The notes below the pieces were generated by a model that ran no database searches, was not told the DNA's origin, and saw nothing but the letters and a program-made list of their open reading frames with translations. A DNA stretch of 64,000 nt, taken from assembly GCF_003334815.1 (NCBI RefSeq), contig NZ_QOWO01000012.1, one strand, 5' to 3'. Below, piece after piece: positions 25,780 to 54,292 of this stretch. How positions within the stretch are numbered: position 1 is the stretch's first letter; each line of letters opens with the position of its first letter. Both the position numbers and the translations under genes were made by a program. The stretch comes from Escherichia coli (GTDB lineage Bacteria > Pseudomonadota > Gammaproteobacteria > Enterobacterales > Enterobacteriaceae).

Positions 25780-25895
25780 CAAAGTGCGCTTTGTCCATGC
25801 CGGATGCGGCGCGAACGCCTTATCCGGCCTACAAAAGTTTGCAAATTCAATAAATTGCAGAATTCATGTAGGCCTGATAAGCGAAGCGCATCAGG
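25780..25895. repeat. REP/BIME element(s)
   Basis: tgccggatgcggcgcgaacgccttatccggcctac ... gtaggcctgataagcgaagcgcatcaggca. Confidence 0.85.
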
Positions 25896-30867: not shown

Positions 30868-30965
30868 TTCGCATTTGCAGGCAGGATAAGGCGTTTACGC
30901 CGCATCCGGCATTTGAGCAGGATGCCTGATGCGACGCTGATAGCGTCTTATCAGGCCTACACTCC
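30868..30965. repeat. REP/BIME element(s)
   Basis: ggcaggataaggcgtttacgccgcatccggca ... gcctgatgcgacgctgatagcgtcttatcaggcctac. Confidence 0.85.
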
Positions 30966-39748: not shown

Positions 39749-39990
39749 TGCCGGATGCGGCGCGAGCGCCTTATCCGGCCTACGGGTCGGCAACAGTTGT
39801 AGGCCTGATAAGACGCGACAGCGTCGCATCAGGCATTGATTGCCGGATGCGGCACAAGTGCCTTATCCGGCCTACAGGTCGGCAATAGTTGTAGGCCTGA
39901 TAAGACGCGACAGCGTCGCATCAGGCATTGATTGCCGGATGCGGCGCGAGCGCCTTATCCGGCCTACGGGTCGTGCATCCGACAACACCG
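39749..39990. repeat. BIME: tandem 92-bp units each carrying an inverted REP pair (2 full units plus a partial third)
   Basis: ccggatgcggcgcgagcgccttatccggcctacgggtcggcaacagttgtaggcctgataagacgcgacagcgtcgcatcaggcattgattg repeated from 39751 and from 39843. Confidence 0.9.
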
Positions 39991-47433: not shown

Positions 47434-48267
47434 TTAATTGCTCAAACGCTGCGGATGGGTATAAACCGTTGCCCGACCCGGTTTACAAAAACCTACCAGT
47501 GTCAGATTACAGCGCTCAGCCACTTCTACAGCAAGCGTGGTCGCGGCAGACACCGCAAACAAAATCTCTACGCCGCACATCGCCGACTTTTGCACCATTT
47601 CATAACTGGCACGACTGGAAACCAGTACCGCACCTTGCTGCCAGCTTTCCCCTTCTTGTGACCGGCGGCCTAACAGTTTGTCCAGCGCCACATGGCGACC
47701 CACGTCTTCATGCCCGCCGACCAGTTCGCCAGATGGCAACATCCAGGCAGCGGCGTGAGTACAACCAGTCAGTTGCCCCACTGGCTGAAAATCGTTGAGA
47801 TGACGTAATGCATCATCCAGTTTGTTGAGATCAAACGTCTGGGTGAACGGTAGCGGCTGCACCGGTTTTCCGATGTCATTAAGTTGCTCCACGCCGCATA
47901 CGCCACAGCCCGTACGTCCCGCCAGCGCCCGGCGGCGCTCCTTCAACCCCATAAAGCGGCGGCTGGAAAGCTCAATTTGTACTTCAAGACCATTACAGGA
48001 AGGAACGACATCCATGCCGAAGATATCGCGCGGACTTTCGATAATCCCCTCGGAAAGCGAAAAACCGAGCGCAAAGTACTCAAGGTCTTTGGGCGACGCC
48101 ATCATCACCACATGCGAAATGCCGTTGTAGACCAGCGCAACGGGAACTTCTTCCGCGACCTCATCTAACCGTGGGTGTTGTAAATCATCACGCCGCCATA
48201 ACTCAATTTGATGAACACCTGTGATATTTGTCACATTTTCGATTTCTTTTCGCTGTGTTTTTTTCAC
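47434..48267 (-). CDS. fdhD: Formate dehydrogenase sulfurtransferase/accessory protein FdhD
   Basis: 277 aa [37 protein letters not shown]. Confidence 0.94.
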
Positions 48268-48460
48268 TTTCTCTTAACCAGATAAGAACACACACACCAA
48301 CATTATGGTATTCTGTTACAAACCCTTCCTGGATGGAGGGAAATTGAGCCAATTCTGGACCTTTGCGGCCCCTTCCGCAAAGAAAAATAACTCCCACTCC
48401 CTGCACACGCAGCAAGCGAATGTAAATGGGACGTGACAATGTCGAAACAAGGAGCAATCC

Positions 48461-51400
48461 ATGCAGGTCAGCAGAAGGCAGTTCTTTAAGATCTGCGCTG
48501 GCGGTATGGCAGGCACCACGGCAGCGGCACTGGGTTTTGCACCCAGCGTAGCACTCGCGGAAACCCGGCAGTATAAACTGCTGCGCACCCGCGAAACCCG
48601 TAATACCTGCACCTATTGTTCCGTAGGCTGTGGGCTGTTGATGTACAGCCTCGGTGACGGAGCAAAAAACGCCAAAGCATCTATCTTCCATATCGAAGGC
48701 GATCCGGATCACCCGGTCAACCGCGGTGCACTTTGTCCGAAAGGCGCTGGCCTGGTGGATTTCATCCACTCCGAAAGCCGTCTGAAGTTTCCGGAATACC
48801 GTGCGCCAGGTTCTGATAAATGGCAGCAAATCAGTTGGGAAGAGGCGTTTGATCGCATCGCCAAACTGATGAAAGAAGACCGCGATGCTAACTACATTGC
48901 GCAAAACGCCGAAGGCGTGACTGTTAACCGCTGGCTCTCCACCGGGATGCTGTGTGCTTCCGCGTCGAGTAACGAAACCGGCTATTTAACGCAAAAATTC
49001 TCCCGCGCGCTGGGTATGCTCGCGGTCGACAACCAGGCGCGTGTCTGACACGGACCAACGGTAGCAAGTCTTGCTCCAACATTTGGTCGCGGTGCGATGA
49101 CCAACCACTGGGTCGACATCAAGAACGCCAACCTCGTCGTGGTGATGGGCGGTAACGCCGCTGAAGCTCACCCGGTCGGGTTCCGCTGGGCGATGGAAGC
49201 CAAAATTCACAACGGCGCGAAGCTGATTGTGATCGATCCTCGCTTTACGCGTACGGCGGCGGTAGCTGACTACTATGCCCCTATTCGTTCCGGTACTGAC
49301 ATTGCTTTCCTGTCAGGCGTATTGCTGTACCTGCTGAACAATGAAAAATTCAACCGCGAATACACCGAAGCCTATACCAACGCCAGCCTGATCGTGCGTG
49401 AGGATTACGGCTTTGAAGATGGCCTGTTCACCGGCTACGACGCGGAAAAACGCAAGTACGATAAATCCTCCTGGACTTATGAACTGGACGAAAACGGCTT
49501 CGCCAAACGCGATACCACGCTGCAACATCCGCGCTGCGTGTGGAACTTGCTGAAACAGCACGTTTCCCGCTACACGCCAGATGTGGTTGAAAACATCTGT
49601 GGTACGCCAAAAGACGCGTTCCTGAAAGTCTGCGAATACATCGCAGAAACCAGTGCTCACGATAAAACTGCCTCGTTCCTGTATGCCCTCGGCTGGACGC
49701 AACACTCCGTTGGTGCGCAAAACATTCGTACGATGGCGATGATCCAGCTGCTGCTCGGCAATATGGGGATGGCAGGCGGCGGCGTTAACGCCCTGCGCGG
49801 TCACTCCAATATTCAGGGGCTGACGGACCTGGGGCTGCTGTCGCAGAGCCTGCCAGGTTACATGACGCTGCCAAGCGAGAAGCAGACCGATCTGCAAACC
49901 TACCTTACCGCCAACACGCCAAAACCGCTGCTGGAAGGCCAGGTAAACTACTGGGGCAACTACCCGAAATTCTTCGTCTCTATGATGAAGGCCTTCTTTG
50001 GTGATAAAGCGACGGCGGAAAATAGCTGGGGCTTTGACTGGTTGCCGAAGTGGGATAAAGGCTACGACGTCCTGCAATACTTCGAGATGATGAAAGAGGG
50101 CAAGGTCAATGGCTATATCTGCCAGGGCTTTAACCCTGTTGCCTCATTCCCGAACAAAAACAAAGTGATCGGTTGTCTGTCGAAACTGAAGTTCCTCGTC
50201 ACCATCGACCCACTGAACACTGAAACCTCTAACTTCTGGCAGAACCACGGTGAGCTGAACGAAGTTGACTCGTCGAAGATCCAGACCGAAGTGTTCCGTC
50301 TGCCATCGACCTGCTTCGCGGAAGAGAACGGTTCTATCGTTAACTCAGGTCGCTGGTTACAGTGGCACTGGAAAGGTGCGGACGCCCCGGGGATTGCGCT
50401 GACTGACGGCGAGATCCTCTCCGGTATCTTCCTGCGCTTGCGCAAGATGTATGCCGAACAGGGTGGCGCGAACCCGGACCAGGTGCTGAACATGACATGG
50501 AACTACGCCATTCCGCATGAGCCATCTTCAGAAGAAGTGGCGATGGAGAGCAACGGTAAGGCGCTGGCCGATATTACCGATCCGGCAACCGGTGCGGTTA
50601 TCGTCAAGAAAGGCCAACAACTTAGTTCGTTCGCCCAATTGCGCGATGACGGTACAACCTCCTGTGGCTGCTGGATTTTCGCCGGTAGCTGGACGCCGGA
50701 AGGCAACCAGATGGCACGCCGTGATAACGCCGATCCGTCTGGCCTCGGTAACACGCTGGGCTGGGCATGGGCATGGCCGCTTAACCGCCGCATTCTGTAT
50801 AACCGCGCCTCCGCAGATCCGCAGGGTAACCCGTGGGATCCGAAGCGTCAGTTGCTGAAATGGGACGGCACTAAGTGGACCGGCTGGGATATTCCGGACT
50901 ACAGCGCAGCGCCTCCGGGTAGCGGCGTCGGGCCGTTTATCATGCAGCAGGAAGGCATGGGGCGTCTGTTTGCCCTCGATAAGATGGCGGAAGGTCCGTT
51001 CCCGGAACACTACGAGCCGTTTGAAACGCCGCTGGGAACTAACCCGCTGCATCCAAACGTTATCTCGAACCCGGCTGCACGTATCTTTAAAGACGACGCC
51101 GAAGCATTGGGTAAAGCCGATAAGTTCCCGTATGTCGGAACCACCTATCGTCTGACCGAGCACTTCCACTACTGGACCAAACACGCGCTGTTGAACGCGA
51201 TTTTGCAGCCAGAGCAGTTTGTGGAAATCGGGGAGTCGCTGGCGAATAAACTTGGCATTGCCCAGGGCGATACCGTGAAAGTCTCCTCCAACCGTGGCTA
51301 TATCAAAGCCAAAGCGGTGGTGACCAAACGTATTCGCACGCTGAAAGCGAACGGCAAAGATATCGATACCATCGGTATTCCGATTCACTGGGGCTATGAA

Positions 51401-51511
51401 GGCGTAGCTAAAAAAGGCTTTATTGCCAATACTTTAACGCCATTCGTTGGTGATGCGAACACGCAGACGCCGGAGTTTAAGTCCTTCCTTGTGAATGTGG
51501 AAAAGGTGTAA
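48461..51511 (+). CDS. fdoG: Formate dehydrogenase-O catalytic subunit (selenocysteine-containing, Tat-exported); UGA at 49046..49048 read as Sec
   Basis: ORF track splits it into 48461..49048 and in-frame 49097..51511; Tat motif SRRQFFK; UGA falls in the expected active-site region; total 1016 codons. Confidence 0.93.
49049..49095 (+). other. Predicted bacterial SECIS hairpin directing Sec insertion at the fdoG UGA
   Basis: Position immediately 3' of the in-frame UGA; local dyad ggtagcaagtcttgctcc; structure not folded. Confidence 0.55.
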
Positions 51512-51523
51512 CGGAGACGACAT

Positions 51524-52426
51524 ATGGCTTATCAATCTCAAGATATCATTCGTCGTTCCGCGACTAACGGTCTGACCCCCGCGCCTCAGGCGCGGGACTT
51601 CCAGGAAGAAGTGGCGAAACTCATCGACGTTACCACCTGTATCGGCTGTAAAGCCTGTCAGGTGGCGTGTTCAGAGTGGAACGACATTCGCGATACCGTC
51701 GGCAATAACATTGGGGTGTACGACAACCCCAATGATTTAAGCGCCAAATCGTGGACGGTAATGCGCTTCTCGGAAGTGGAGCAGAACGACAAACTGGAAT
51801 GGCTGATCCGCAAAGACGGCTGTATGCACTGTTCCGATCCAGGCTGCCTGAAAGCGTGCCCGGCGGAAGGTGCAATTATTCAGTATGCCAACGGTATCGT
51901 CGACTTCCAGTCCGAGCAGTGCATTGGCTGCGGTTATTGCATTGCGGGCTGTCCGTTCGACATTCCGCGCCTCAACCCGGAAGACAACCGCGTCTACAAA
52001 TGTACGCTGTGCGTTGACCGCGTGGTGGTTGGGCAAGAACCAGCCTGCGTGAAGACCTGCCCAACGGGCGCGATTCACTTCGGTACGAAAGAGTCGATGA
52101 AAACGCTGGCGAGCGAGCGCGTTGCTGAGCTGAAAACCCGCGGTTACGACAATGCGGGTCTGTACGATCCGGCAGGCGTCGGTGGTACACACGTCATGTA
52201 CGTGCTGCACCATGCTGACAAGCCAAATCTGTATCATGGCTTGCCGGAGAACCCGGAAATCAGCGAAACCGTGAAATTCTGGAAAGGCATCTGGAAACCG
52301 CTCGCGGCTGTTGGCTTTGCGGCTACCTTTGCGGCCAGTATCTTCCACTACGTGGGTGTCGGTCCGAACCGTGCGGATGAGGAAGAGAATAATCTGCACG
52401 AAGAGAAAGACGAGGAGCGCAAATGA
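51524..52426 (+). CDS. fdoH: Formate dehydrogenase-O iron-sulfur subunit
   Basis: 300 aa; multiple ferredoxin-type CxxCxxCxxxCP clusters; C-terminal TM anchor. Confidence 0.95.
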
Positions 52427-53058
52427 AACGACGTGACACCATCGTGCGCTACACCGCGCCGGAACGTATCAACCACTGGATCACCGCCTTCTGCTTCATC
52501 CTGGCGGCGGTGAGCGGGCTGGGCTTTTTGTTCCCGTCCTTCAACTGGTTGATGCAAATCATGGGCACACCGCAGCTGGCGCGAATTCTGCACCCGTTTG
52601 TCGGCGTGGTTATGTTTGCCTCGTTCATCATCATGTTTTTCCGTTACTGGCATCACAACCTAATCAATCGGGATGATATCTTTTGGGCGAAGAATATTCG
52701 TAAGATCGTCGTCAACGAGGAAGTAGGTGACACCGGGCGTTATAACTTCGGTCAGAAATGCGTTTTCTGGGCGGCGATTATTTTCCTGGTTCTGCTGCTG
52801 GTGAGCGGCGTGATTATCTGGCGTCCTTATTTTGCGCCTGCTTTCTCAATCCCGGTGATCCGATTCGCGTTAATGCTGCATTCATTTGCCGCAGTGGCGT
52901 TAATTGTGGTTATCATGGTGCATATCTACGCCGCCCTTTGGGTGAAAGGCACGATTACCGCCATGGTGGAAGGATGGGTTACCAGCGCCTGGGCGAAGAA
53001 ACATCACCCGCGCTGGTACCGTGAGGTCCGCAAGACAACGGAAAAGAAAGCTGAATGA
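52423..53058 (+). CDS. fdoI: Formate dehydrogenase-O cytochrome b556 subunit
   Basis: 211 aa [38 protein letters not shown]. Confidence 0.95.
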
Positions 53059-53984
53059 GTATTCGCATAATCCCGCAAGATGAGCTGGGTTCAAGCGAGA
53101 AACGTACGGCGGATATGATTCCGCCGTTATTGTTCCCTCGGCTCAAGAATTTATACAACCGCCGCGCCGAGCGTCTGCGCGAGCTGGCAGAAAATAATCC
53201 TCTGGGTGATTACCTGCGCTTTGCTGCGCTTATCGCCCACGCCCAGGAAGTGGTGCTGTACGACCATCCGCTGGAGATGGATCTGACTGCGCGCATTAAA
53301 GAAGCCAGCGCACAAGGCAAGCCCCCGCTGGATATTCACGTTCTGCCGCGTGATAAGCACTGGCAAAAGCTGCTGATGGCGCTGATTGCTGAGCTGAAAC
53401 CTGAAATGAGCGGCCCGGCGCTGGCAGTGATTGAGAATCTGGAGAAGGCATCGACTCAGGAGCTGGAAGATATGGCCAGCGCGCTGTTTGCCTCTGATTT
53501 CTCGTCCGTCAGCAGCGATAAAGCGCCGTTTATCTGGGCTGCACTGTCGCTCTACTGGGCGCAGATGGCCAATCTGATCCCCGGCAAAGCCCGCGCTGAA
53601 TACGGCGAGCAACGTCAATATTGCCCGGTTTGTGGTTCTATGCCGGTGTCCAGCATGGTGCAAATTGGCACCACTCAGGGGCTACGTTACCTGCACTGCA
53701 ACCTGTGTGAAACTGAATGGCACGTAGTGCGCGTAAAATGCAGCAACTGCGAGCAGAGCGGCAAACTGCATTACTGGTCGCTGGATGACGAACAGGCCGC
53801 GATTAAAGCCGAAAGCTGCGATGACTGCGACACTTACCTGAAAATTCTCTATCAGGAAAAAGATCCAAAAATCGAAGCCGTAGCAGATGACCTCGCCTCT
53901 CTGGTACTGGACGCACGAATGGAGCAAGAAGGCTATGCCCGCAGTTCCATCAACCCGTTCCTGTTTCCGGGTGAAGGAGAGTAA
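53055..53984 (+). CDS. fdhE: Formate dehydrogenase maturation protein FdhE
   Basis: 309 aa [28 protein letters not shown]; CxxC pairs (rubredoxin-like). Confidence 0.95.
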
Positions 53985-54149: not shown

Positions 54150-54292
54150 TGACAAGCGTAAGATTGCCTGATGCGCTGCGCTTATCAGGCCTACCAATAA
54201 ACTGCAATACATTGAATTTATACGACTTTGTAGGCCGGATAAGGCGTTCACGCCGCATCCGGCATGAACAACGCGCACGTTGTCAGCAATCT
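54150..54292. repeat. REP/BIME element(s)
   Basis: gcctgatgcgctgcgcttatcaggcctac ... gtaggccggataaggcgttcacgccgcatccggca. Confidence 0.85.

Follow-up and report, generated by a model that had tools for sequence, protein, structure and literature searches.

The question raised by this locus is whether the TGA at codon 196 of the formate dehydrogenase gene fdoG is a stop that breaks the gene in two, or a codon that is read as selenocysteine (Sec). The evidence set out below points almost certainly to the latter, a Sec recoding site at which the UGA would be decoded by way of a SECIS hairpin in the same mRNA. The window referred to in the text is the whole 64-kb stretch of Escherichia coli DNA that was analysed.

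The fdoG reading frame and its operon

The features that define the reading frame are the following.

48461..49048, + strand: upstream ORF of 195 aa, from an ATG start to the TGA at 49046..49048
49097..51511, + strand: downstream ORF of 804 aa, in the same frame as the upstream ORF
48461..51511, + strand: fdoG, formate dehydrogenase O catalytic alpha subunit, 1016 codons with the assigned Sec at codon 196
49046..49048, + strand: in-frame UGA, assigned as selenocysteine codon 196, with C as the next base (UGAC)
48449..48454, + strand: Shine-Dalgarno sequence AAGGAG, 6 nt ahead of the fdoG ATG at 48461, as read from the sequence
48470..48490, + strand: twin-arginine (Tat) motif S-R-R-Q-F-F-K, FdoG residues 4–10, from the translation

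An earlier note on this DNA had proposed that the TGA splits fdoG, that the downstream ORF continues in the same frame, and that the joined length is 1016 codons. Coordinates and translation agree with all three statements, as 48461..51511 translates into 1017 codons with one internal stop at codon 196, corresponding to a product of 1016 residues, and the 1016 codons hold no further stops or frameshifts. Direct comparison with E. coli K-12 MG1655 b3894 gives 100% identity over all 3051 nt. The fdoG product scores 1574.6 bits against NCBIfam TIGR01553 (cut-off 814). The joined protein can be aligned with 1KQF, the FDH-N alpha structure, over residues 1–1015; Desulfovibrio chains labelled 'selenocysteine-containing' are matched as well. 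The UGA sits at the catalytic Sec/Cys position of this known selenoprotein family, where relatives carry TGA or TGY, and the paralogue fdnG has a TGA at the same codon (196). Across the species, fdoG is present in 5426/5426 complete E. coli genomes, and no record falls below 95% identity in the 80-nt SECIS region. The N-terminal S-R-R-Q-F-F-K is presumably a Tat export signal, an assumption taken from established knowledge of FdnG and FdoG. When the sequence ahead of the internal ATG at 49097 was read, no purine-rich motif like AAGGAG was found there.

The neighbouring genes are listed below.

47434..48267, − strand: fdhD, accessory sulfurtransferase, divergent from fdoG (TIGR00129, 340 bits; RefSeq annotation)
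51524..52426, + strand: fdoH, iron-sulfur beta subunit (TIGR01582, 478.7 bits; RefSeq annotation)
52423..53058, + strand: fdoI, cytochrome b556 gamma subunit (NF007924, 453 bits, cut-off 341)
53055..53984, + strand: fdhE, formate dehydrogenase accessory protein (NF002925, 604 bits)

The order fdhD / fdoG-fdoH-fdoI-fdhE matches that of K-12 b3891–b3895. The FDH-N gamma model gives fdoI 243.6 bits, which is under its cut-off of 339, and on these profile scores fdoI marks the operon as fdo and not fdn. Together with these operon partners, the nucleotide identity of the gene (100% to b3894 vs 74.6% to fdnG) identifies it as fdoG rather than fdnG.

The hairpin downstream of the UGA

The RNA features that follow the UGA are the following.

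49043..49101, + strand: Rfam SECIS_3 (RF01989) match, model positions 1–59 of 59
49049..49091, + strand: whole predicted SECIS hairpin, comprising a lower helix, an internal loop with bulges, and the apical stem-loop (MFE −12.7 kcal/mol, z = −2.11)
49060..49077, + strand: apical stem-loop GGUAGCAAGUCUUGCUCC, putative SelB-binding element, nt 15–32 counted from the U of the UGA

The SECIS_3 match is full-length and scores 84.3 bits (E 1.8e-19), above the gathering score of 63, whereas the same element reaches only 28.1 bits on SECIS_2 (RF01988; gathering score 70). The Rfam scan of the 64-kb window returned no second SECIS, the fdoG element standing alone. The dyad ggtagcaagtcttgctcc at 49060..49077 folds as ((.(((((...))))))), begins with G15 at 49060, 11 nt past the UGA and within the coding sequence, and carries a bulged U17 (49062) as well as G23 and U24 in the loop (49068–49069). 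An apical start at nt 15, a bulged U17, and loop G23/U24 as SelB contacts are features of E. coli SECIS elements (review, PMC8659212). The suggestion that the dyad 3′ of the UGA is a bacterial SECIS, to be checked by folding and by comparison with fdhF and fdnG, is upheld by the above-threshold match and the presence of U17, G23 and U24; the apical hairpin forms in the predicted fold, its spacing is the same as in fdhF, and the fdnG element is identical.

Folding energy alone is weak and non-distinctive evidence here. Against shuffled sequences, z is −2.06 for the 18-nt apical hairpin and −0.21 for the 55 nt of 49046..49100; the MFE can neither confirm nor refute a SECIS at this site, and for this reason the assignment was based on the covariance model and comparative data. 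In the lower helix the fit to the Rfam consensus register is imperfect: two of the consensus pairs are A-G and A-C in E. coli, and ViennaRNA favours a lower-helix register shifted by one base that leaves the apical element unaffected. Published studies of the minimal fdhF SECIS have shown that SelB binding does not require the lower helix.

For the comparison, at least 120 related loci from Proteobacteria, Acidobacteriota, Actinomycetota and others were collected by means of a back-translated protein motif in which third codon positions were left free. Since the pattern itself fixed U17 and the C that follows the UGA, the conservation of these two positions is uninformative. Among the matches listed, the codon-196 column is either TGA or TGY (Cys), with TGA in 104/124 matches drawn from a wide range of phyla, the E. 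coli K-12 reference loci among them. The apical pairs are kept at 97.9% in the FdnG/FdoG-like distinct Sec sequences (n = 60 among the matches listed) and at 100% in the FdhF-like ones (n = 10 among the matches listed), whereas only 39–56% of the pairs can form in the Cys-codon relatives (n = 20 among the matches listed). The Mann-Whitney p for Sec vs Cys apical pairing is 5e-16 among the matches listed, a value that overstates independence, as do the p-values in general, since the sequences are mutually related. In the same set of listed matches, G23U24 occurs in 59/60 and 10/10 distinct Sec sequences vs 4/20 Cys sequences, and the lower helix is 83% paired over 57 distinct Sec relatives. In the covariation analysis the apical helix is 97.7% paired among the Sec relatives listed, and compensatory double changes are seen in three of its seven pairs; the observed covariation score was reached by 0/500 shuffles, and slid-partner controls were 28–50% paired. 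The SECIS_3 gathering score was reached by four of five distant Sec loci and by none of nine Cys loci. Across these alignments the predicted hairpin goes with TGA and is absent where the codon is Cys. We regard such comparative evidence, namely the Rfam score, the covariation, and the difference between Sec and Cys relatives in hairpin-forming sequence, as decisive for the SECIS assignment.

A further line of evidence comes from the alignment of fdoG with its paralogue.

49043..49113, + strand: 71-nt block with zero synonymous change between fdoG and fdnG, from the pairwise alignment

The two genes are 74.6% identical in nucleotides and 76.8% in amino acids over the gene pair. The block, which is also identical to K-12 fdnG, is their longest identical run (the runner-up is 35 nt). 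It corresponds to 23 consecutive identical codons in a pair of genes in which 39.6% of same-residue codons differ, a pattern that would mark selection on the RNA sequence besides selection on the protein. Its 5′ end coincides with SECIS_3 model position 1, 3 nt ahead of the UGA, and its 3′ end overruns the Rfam model by about 12 nt (49101 vs 49113) and the hairpin end at 49091 by about 22 nt. A recent gene conversion between fdoG and fdnG could also give a 71-nt identity without RNA selection; the overrun past the 3′ end of the model agrees with such an event, as does the fact that identity holds even where positions covary in other lineages. Against it, the block begins exactly at model position 1, and the same 60-mer is common to fdnG- or fdoG-type genes of several Enterobacterales genera (Providencia, Photorhabdus, Yersinia, Citrobacter, Enterobacter, Klebsiella and Superficieibacter, and E. 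albertii). This 60-mer spans Enterobacterales families, and the freeze is therefore not a recent one-genome event. We consider recent conversion unlikely, and it touches this line of evidence only. The synonymous freeze, present in both paralogues and in several Enterobacterales families, could conceivably reflect a constraint beyond SelB binding to the hairpin, such as recurrent conversion or a second sequence-specific role of the RNA (a ribosome contact, or a titration of SelB like that of the selAB leader, for which a regulatory SelB-titration function has been described), a suggestion that we offer as speculative and quite improbable.

Decoding of the UGA and competing readings

In the recoding mechanism that we favour, a ribosome on fdoG mRNA would read the UGA of codon 196 as selenocysteine and not as a stop. 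The RNA of 49049..49091 would form the SECIS hairpin just downstream of the UGA, and the apical stem-loop at 49060..49077 would, from published knowledge, be bound by the C-terminal domain of SelB. SelB would carry GTP together with Sec-tRNA(Sec), which SelA and SelD produce on the selC tRNA. Held by the SECIS at a distance of 11 nt from the UGA, SelB would, as expected from published work, supply the A site with this tRNA in competition with release factor 2. Translation would then proceed to a 1016-residue catalytic subunit in which, again by what is published, selenium is incorporated and Sec196 ligates the molybdenum cofactor. That read-through of fdoG depends on SelB and selenium and places Sec in the product is something we accept from the published literature. 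The selAB genes are present in 5426/5426 complete E. coli genomes, a statement that holds for the species and not for this strain in particular; selA, selB, selC, selD and tRNA genes of any kind are absent from the 64-kb window. Nothing was found that contradicts the recoding explanation.

Three other readings of the TGA were weighed. A plain ORF scan does yield two ORFs, as would be expected if the TGA were a true nonsense mutation and fdoG a decaying pseudogene in this strain. Such a mutation is hard to reconcile with a sequence identical to the functional K-12 gene, with a region found at no less than 95% identity in all 5426 complete genomes, or with a TGA at the same codon in fdnG and in 104 of the 124 motif matches listed; nor do the 1016 codons, otherwise intact, show relaxed constraint in the 804 codons downstream, and RefSeq carries no pseudogene flag. 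The conservation data refute a pseudogene, which we hold to be exceedingly improbable. One could also suppose that the locus makes two polypeptides, a 195-aa N-terminal protein with the Tat signal and the Fe-S site, and an 804-aa protein that starts at ATG 49097. There is indeed an in-frame ATG 48 nt past the TGA, and both fragments occur as called proteins in public collections. This ATG, however, is without a Shine-Dalgarno sequence and encodes the Met of a conserved G-x-G-A-M-T-N motif; the peptide encoded by the 16 codons from TGA to ATG (HGPTVASLAPTFGRGA) is conserved in every relative, Cys relatives with an uninterrupted frame included, and the solved FDH-N alpha chain runs unbroken across the site. 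On account of the missing ribosome-binding site, the conserved linker codons and the unbroken alpha chain, a split gene is rejected and has next to no chance of being correct.

The remaining reading accepts read-through and removes SelB from most of it, in that a near-cognate tRNA (Trp or Cys) would decode a UGA in the weak UGA-C context while the hairpin just slows the ribosome. A C does follow the UGA, UGA-C is an unfavourable context for RF2 in E. coli, and the folding energy of the hairpin is unremarkable. The element nevertheless contains specific SelB determinants at the exact spacing, beyond a mere stable stem, and G23U24 is kept in 69/70 of the distinct Sec sequences listed, which a simple roadblock would not need. 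Moreover, relatives that use Cys encode TGY and lose the hairpin, and selAB is kept throughout E. coli. We reject read-through that is mainly independent of SelB on the strength of the SelB determinants, the G23U24 conservation and the TGY relatives without a hairpin, and consider it very improbable. Recoding of the UGA as Sec through the SECIS is the reading retained in what follows.

Annotation and comparison with known systems

It had also been claimed that automated callers would mis-annotate the gene as a pseudogene. This is correct insofar as plain ORF-based callers do break the gene, but RefSeq/PGAP gives one 3051-nt CDS without a pseudogene flag. In a public protein collection the exact 195-aa and 804-aa fragments are each called on at least 1000 contigs, and some fragment entries in public protein collections are wrongly named, so the practical annotation error is two genes and not a pseudogene. 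The main value of the analysis lies in annotation quality, as recognition of a UGA together with its SECIS averts such fragment calls; biologically it adds nothing new.

Among known systems, the FdnG/FdhF homologues that use Cys share the sequence C-H-G-P-[ST]-V...G-x-G-A-M-[ST]-N with fdoG, and on either side of the codon their gene length is that of fdoG; unlike fdoG, they have no SECIS. The SECIS of fdhF (FDH-H), the model SECIS established by experiment, resembles that of fdoG in its UGAC, in an apical start at nt 15, in the bulged U17 and the loop G23 and U24, all spaced from the UGA as in fdoG, and in the location of the hairpin in coding sequence. The two differ in their encoded peptide and in the lower helix. 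In fdhF the apical stem consists of 4+2 pairs around a loop of 4 nt (GGUC); for fdoG the prediction is 5+2 pairs and a loop of 3 nt (GUC), which makes its 3′ arm one base longer (register A vs B). The SECIS of fdnG (FDH-N, RF01989) is closer still, being identical over 71 nt from a point 3 nt ahead of the UGA, and the Sec codon is number 196 in both genes. The remainder of fdnG differs (74.6% nt identity), and the gene lies in its own operon, fdnGHI, adjoining yddG; fdn is induced by nitrate and anaerobiosis, and fdo is constitutive and aerobically expressed. With K-12 fdoG (b3894), its Sec196 and its SECIS there is no difference, this being the same gene with all 3051 nt and its neighbours alike. 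For E. coli FDH-O, both Sec196 and the SECIS are already known: they are textbook knowledge, modelled in Rfam and correctly annotated in RefSeq.

Reading frame and identity of fdoG

The mechanical ORF list represents fdoG by two entries:

48461..49048, + strand: ORF with ATG start, 195 aa, ending in TGA 49046..49048
49097..51511, + strand: ORF of 804 aa in the frame shared with 48461..49048

Translated as a single frame, 48461..51511 comprises 1017 codons, of which one, codon 196, is an internal stop, and the sequence round 49040..49100 reads cgt gtc TGA cac gga cca acg gta gca agt ctt gct cca aca ttt ggt cgc ggt gcg ATG. The coordinates and counts of the earlier note (TGA, both ORFs, common frame and the dyad ggtagcaagtcttgctcc at 49060..49077) all agree with the ORF list and the translation. 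A Shine-Dalgarno sequence, AAGGAG, lies upstream of the fdoG ATG at 48461, and inspection of the window sequence found none before the internal ATG at 49097. The translated N-terminus carries a twin-arginine motif, SRRQFFK. The joined protein scores 1574.6 bits against NCBIfam TIGR01553 (formate dehydrogenase alpha subunit, FdnG/FdoG type; cut-off 814) and, over residues 1 to 1015, can be matched without a break to the solved FDH-N alpha chain 1KQF. By profile matches, the three ORFs 3′ of fdoG encode the FDH beta subunit, the FdoI-specific cytochrome b556 subunit (453 bits with the FdoI-specific model NF007924; on this subunit the FDH-N gamma model does not reach its own cut-off) and FdhE, and the divergent upstream ORF encodes FdhD. 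The K-12 record has the same gene order (fdhE-fdoI-fdoH-fdoG / fdhD-yiiG-frvR), direct comparison with K-12 b3894 gives 100% identity over 3051/3051 nt, and the 3.4-kb fdoG region is found in 5426/5426 complete E. coli genomes.

RefSeq carries fdoG as one 3051-nt CDS with no pseudogene flag, so the expectation that automated callers would record a pseudogene is untrue of PGAP; the concern behind it stands, as the 195-aa and 804-aa fragments occur in exactly this form as called proteins, each on at least 1000 contigs. In the cluster of the N-terminal fragment (48461..49045; P0001), records from Cronobacter malonaticus and Hafnia alvei bear the name ‘sulfate ABC transporter substrate-binding protein’, apparently a misannotation propagated from the split gene. 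In all E. coli records listed, RefSeq/PGAP gives this gene (48461..51511; L001 3262..6312) the label ‘fdnG, formate dehydrogenase-N subunit alpha’. The gene shares its operon with fdoH, fdoI and fdhE, and its name in the curated K-12 record is fdoG; the label systematically misnames the FDH-O alpha subunit. The fdnGHI operon itself is carried by NZ_JBRAXZ010000002.1 of strain PEC011 (‘plasmid pPEC011-1’, 517 kb), beside its usual chromosomal neighbours yddG and an ompC-like pseudogene. ‘Plasmid’ places make up 7 of the 10,839 counted, and this record may represent either a piece of chromosome with the wrong label or a secondary replicon of very large size.

The SECIS element and other Rfam matches

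In a scan of all Rfam families, SECIS_3 (RF01989) matches full-length at 49043..49101 with 84.3 bits (gathering score 63, E 1.8e-19), the only SECIS match in the 64-kb window. Within it lies:

49060..49077, + strand: apical stem-loop, nt 15-32 from the UGA, fold ((.(((((...)))))))

U17 forms a bulge, and the loop contains G23 and U24. The folding energy of the 55-nt stretch 49046..49100 is unremarkable (z = -0.21); z is -2.11 for the exact 43-nt element and -2.06 for the 18-nt apical hairpin. Folding energy is a poor discriminator for this element. In its lower helix the E. coli element does not fully fit the Rfam consensus register, and the ViennaRNA register is one base off.

The Rfam scan also returned the following elements:

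30880..30957, + strand: naRNA4 (CssrE), REP-type extragenic palindrome
39802..39872, - strand: naRNA4 (CssrE), REP-type extragenic palindrome, in tandem with the next
39894..39964, - strand: naRNA4 (CssrE), REP-type extragenic palindrome, of the tandem pair near 39.8-40.0 kb
54233..54269, + strand: naRNA4 (CssrE), REP-type extragenic palindrome, partial, sub-threshold, directly 3′ of fdhE
6440..6481, - strand: ES036 (CssrF) sRNA
25834..25875, + strand: ES036 (CssrF) sRNA
54187..54229, - strand: ES036 (CssrF) sRNA, just below threshold
12125..12182, + strand: ClpQY (hslVU) heat-shock promoter element, above threshold
7461..7513, - strand: gammaproteobacterial L31 (rpmE) ribosomal-protein leader, above threshold

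The ClpQY and L31 elements fit the E. coli 88-89 min region. The RF02778 ‘FdoG-1 5′ UTR thermometer’ model matches 48254..48490 (+) at 36.4 bits, below its gathering score of 50 (E 2.7e-06); the match spans the region between fdhD and fdoG and runs into the beginning of fdoG.

Constraint on the RNA downstream of the UGA

fdoG and fdnG are 74.6% identical in nucleotides and 76.8% in amino acids, and 39.6% of their same-residue codons differ synonymously. Their longest identical run is 71 nt (49043..49113, 23 identical codons; next longest 35 nt), and its first base is exactly position 1 of the SECIS model. In Enterobacterales every synonymous site is frozen across the 71 nt in both paralogues and several families, whereas other lineages covary freely; this freeze may, at low probability, stem from gene conversion or from some further constraint.

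A 60-nt pattern, obtained by back-translating the protein motif [U/C]-H-G-P-x-V-x7-G-x-G-A-M-x-N, was searched against a single genome of each species. The pattern does not impose RNA pairing, because the third positions of codons, and two codons in full, are free; it does fix U17 and the C that follows the UGA, which makes both uninformative. The sample comprises at least 120 phylogenetically related loci from Proteobacteria, Acidobacteriota, Actinomycetota, Desulfobacterota and Clostridia. Among the matches listed are 90 distinct 60-mers, 70 with TGA and 20 with TGC/TGT, compared below.

Apical pairing potential and the GU at positions 23-24 among the matches listed
TGA, FdnG/FdoG-like (n=60): 97.9% of the seven apical pairs possible; G23U24 in 59/60
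TGA, FdhF-like (n=10): 100% of pairs, in the fdhF register; GU in 10/10
Cys-codon relatives (n=20): 39-56% of pairs; GU in 4/20

Among these matches, and ignoring kinship, Sec and Cys relatives differ in pairing fraction (Mann-Whitney p = 5e-16) and local folding energy (p = 2e-10). Matches at or above the SECIS_3 gathering score occur in Paracoccus, Geomesophilobacter, a Terriglobia MAG and an Actinomycetota MAG, and in 0/9 Cys-codon FdnG-like loci. At FdnG/FdoG-like Sec loci with stops bounding both sides the frame extends ~211 codons upstream and ~825 downstream of the TGA, and the Cys loci listed have lengths close to these.

Covariation was counted on 57 distinct, phylogenetically related Sec FdnG/FdoG-like sequences among the matches listed, in which the apical helix is 97.7% paired. 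Both sides change in three of the seven pairs (18-30 GC/AU/CG; 19-29 GC/UG; 21-27 AU/CG/GC, among the same matches); none of 500 shuffles reached the observed score, and sliding the 3′ partner by 1-3 columns lowers pairing to 28-50%. Some stem changes shift the encoded residues in a coordinated fashion (VASLA to VSSLG). Paralogue comparison, the Sec versus Cys contrast, covariation and the model matches are independent evidence of selection on the RNA.

L044, an FdnG-like locus with TGA in Candidatus Desulfovibrio gallistercoris (4122..4181, -), is followed by RNA lacking the SECIS_3 apical features (2/7 pairs, CU not GU at 23-24, no SECIS_3 match) and presumably uses a different SECIS type or architecture. 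L066, from an uncultured Enterobacterales MAG, has two Sec-type FdnG/FdoG-like sites (2250..2309 and 8164..8223, +) ~5.9 kb apart on one contig and strand, which suggests two formate dehydrogenase operons in tandem.

Most likely reading of UGA196 and known elements

The SECIS, together with SelB, would direct recoding of UGA196 as selenocysteine to yield full-length FdoG, and we regard this as almost certainly the mechanism. Its sequence-level steps are shown by the analysis; for the biochemical steps we draw on established knowledge, and SelB dependence and selenium incorporation for fdoG are taken from published characterisation of the gene. The window holds no sel genes or tRNAs, and selA-selB are present at ≥80% coverage in 5426/5426 complete E. 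coli genomes. The rival readings are a pseudogene, two separate genes and SelB-independent read-through. All three are contradicted, each by one or more of conservation, the uninterrupted Cys-codon homologues, the missing Shine-Dalgarno sequence and the specific SelB determinants.

The general mechanism of Sec recoding is summarised in PMC8124441 and PMC4513850. PMC8659212 places the upper stem-loop of the E. coli SECIS 11 nt from the UGA and describes U17, G23 and U24 as conserved bases that contact SelB; the window element has these same features. The dyad after the UGA, suggested in the earlier note to be a bacterial SECIS, is borne out by likeness to its K-12 counterparts as well as by its model score: the fdhF element has U17, G23 and U24 at matching positions, and the fdnG element is identical in sequence. 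The fdoG SECIS is already known, being that of K-12 fdoG itself, part of a curated Rfam family and treated properly by RefSeq.
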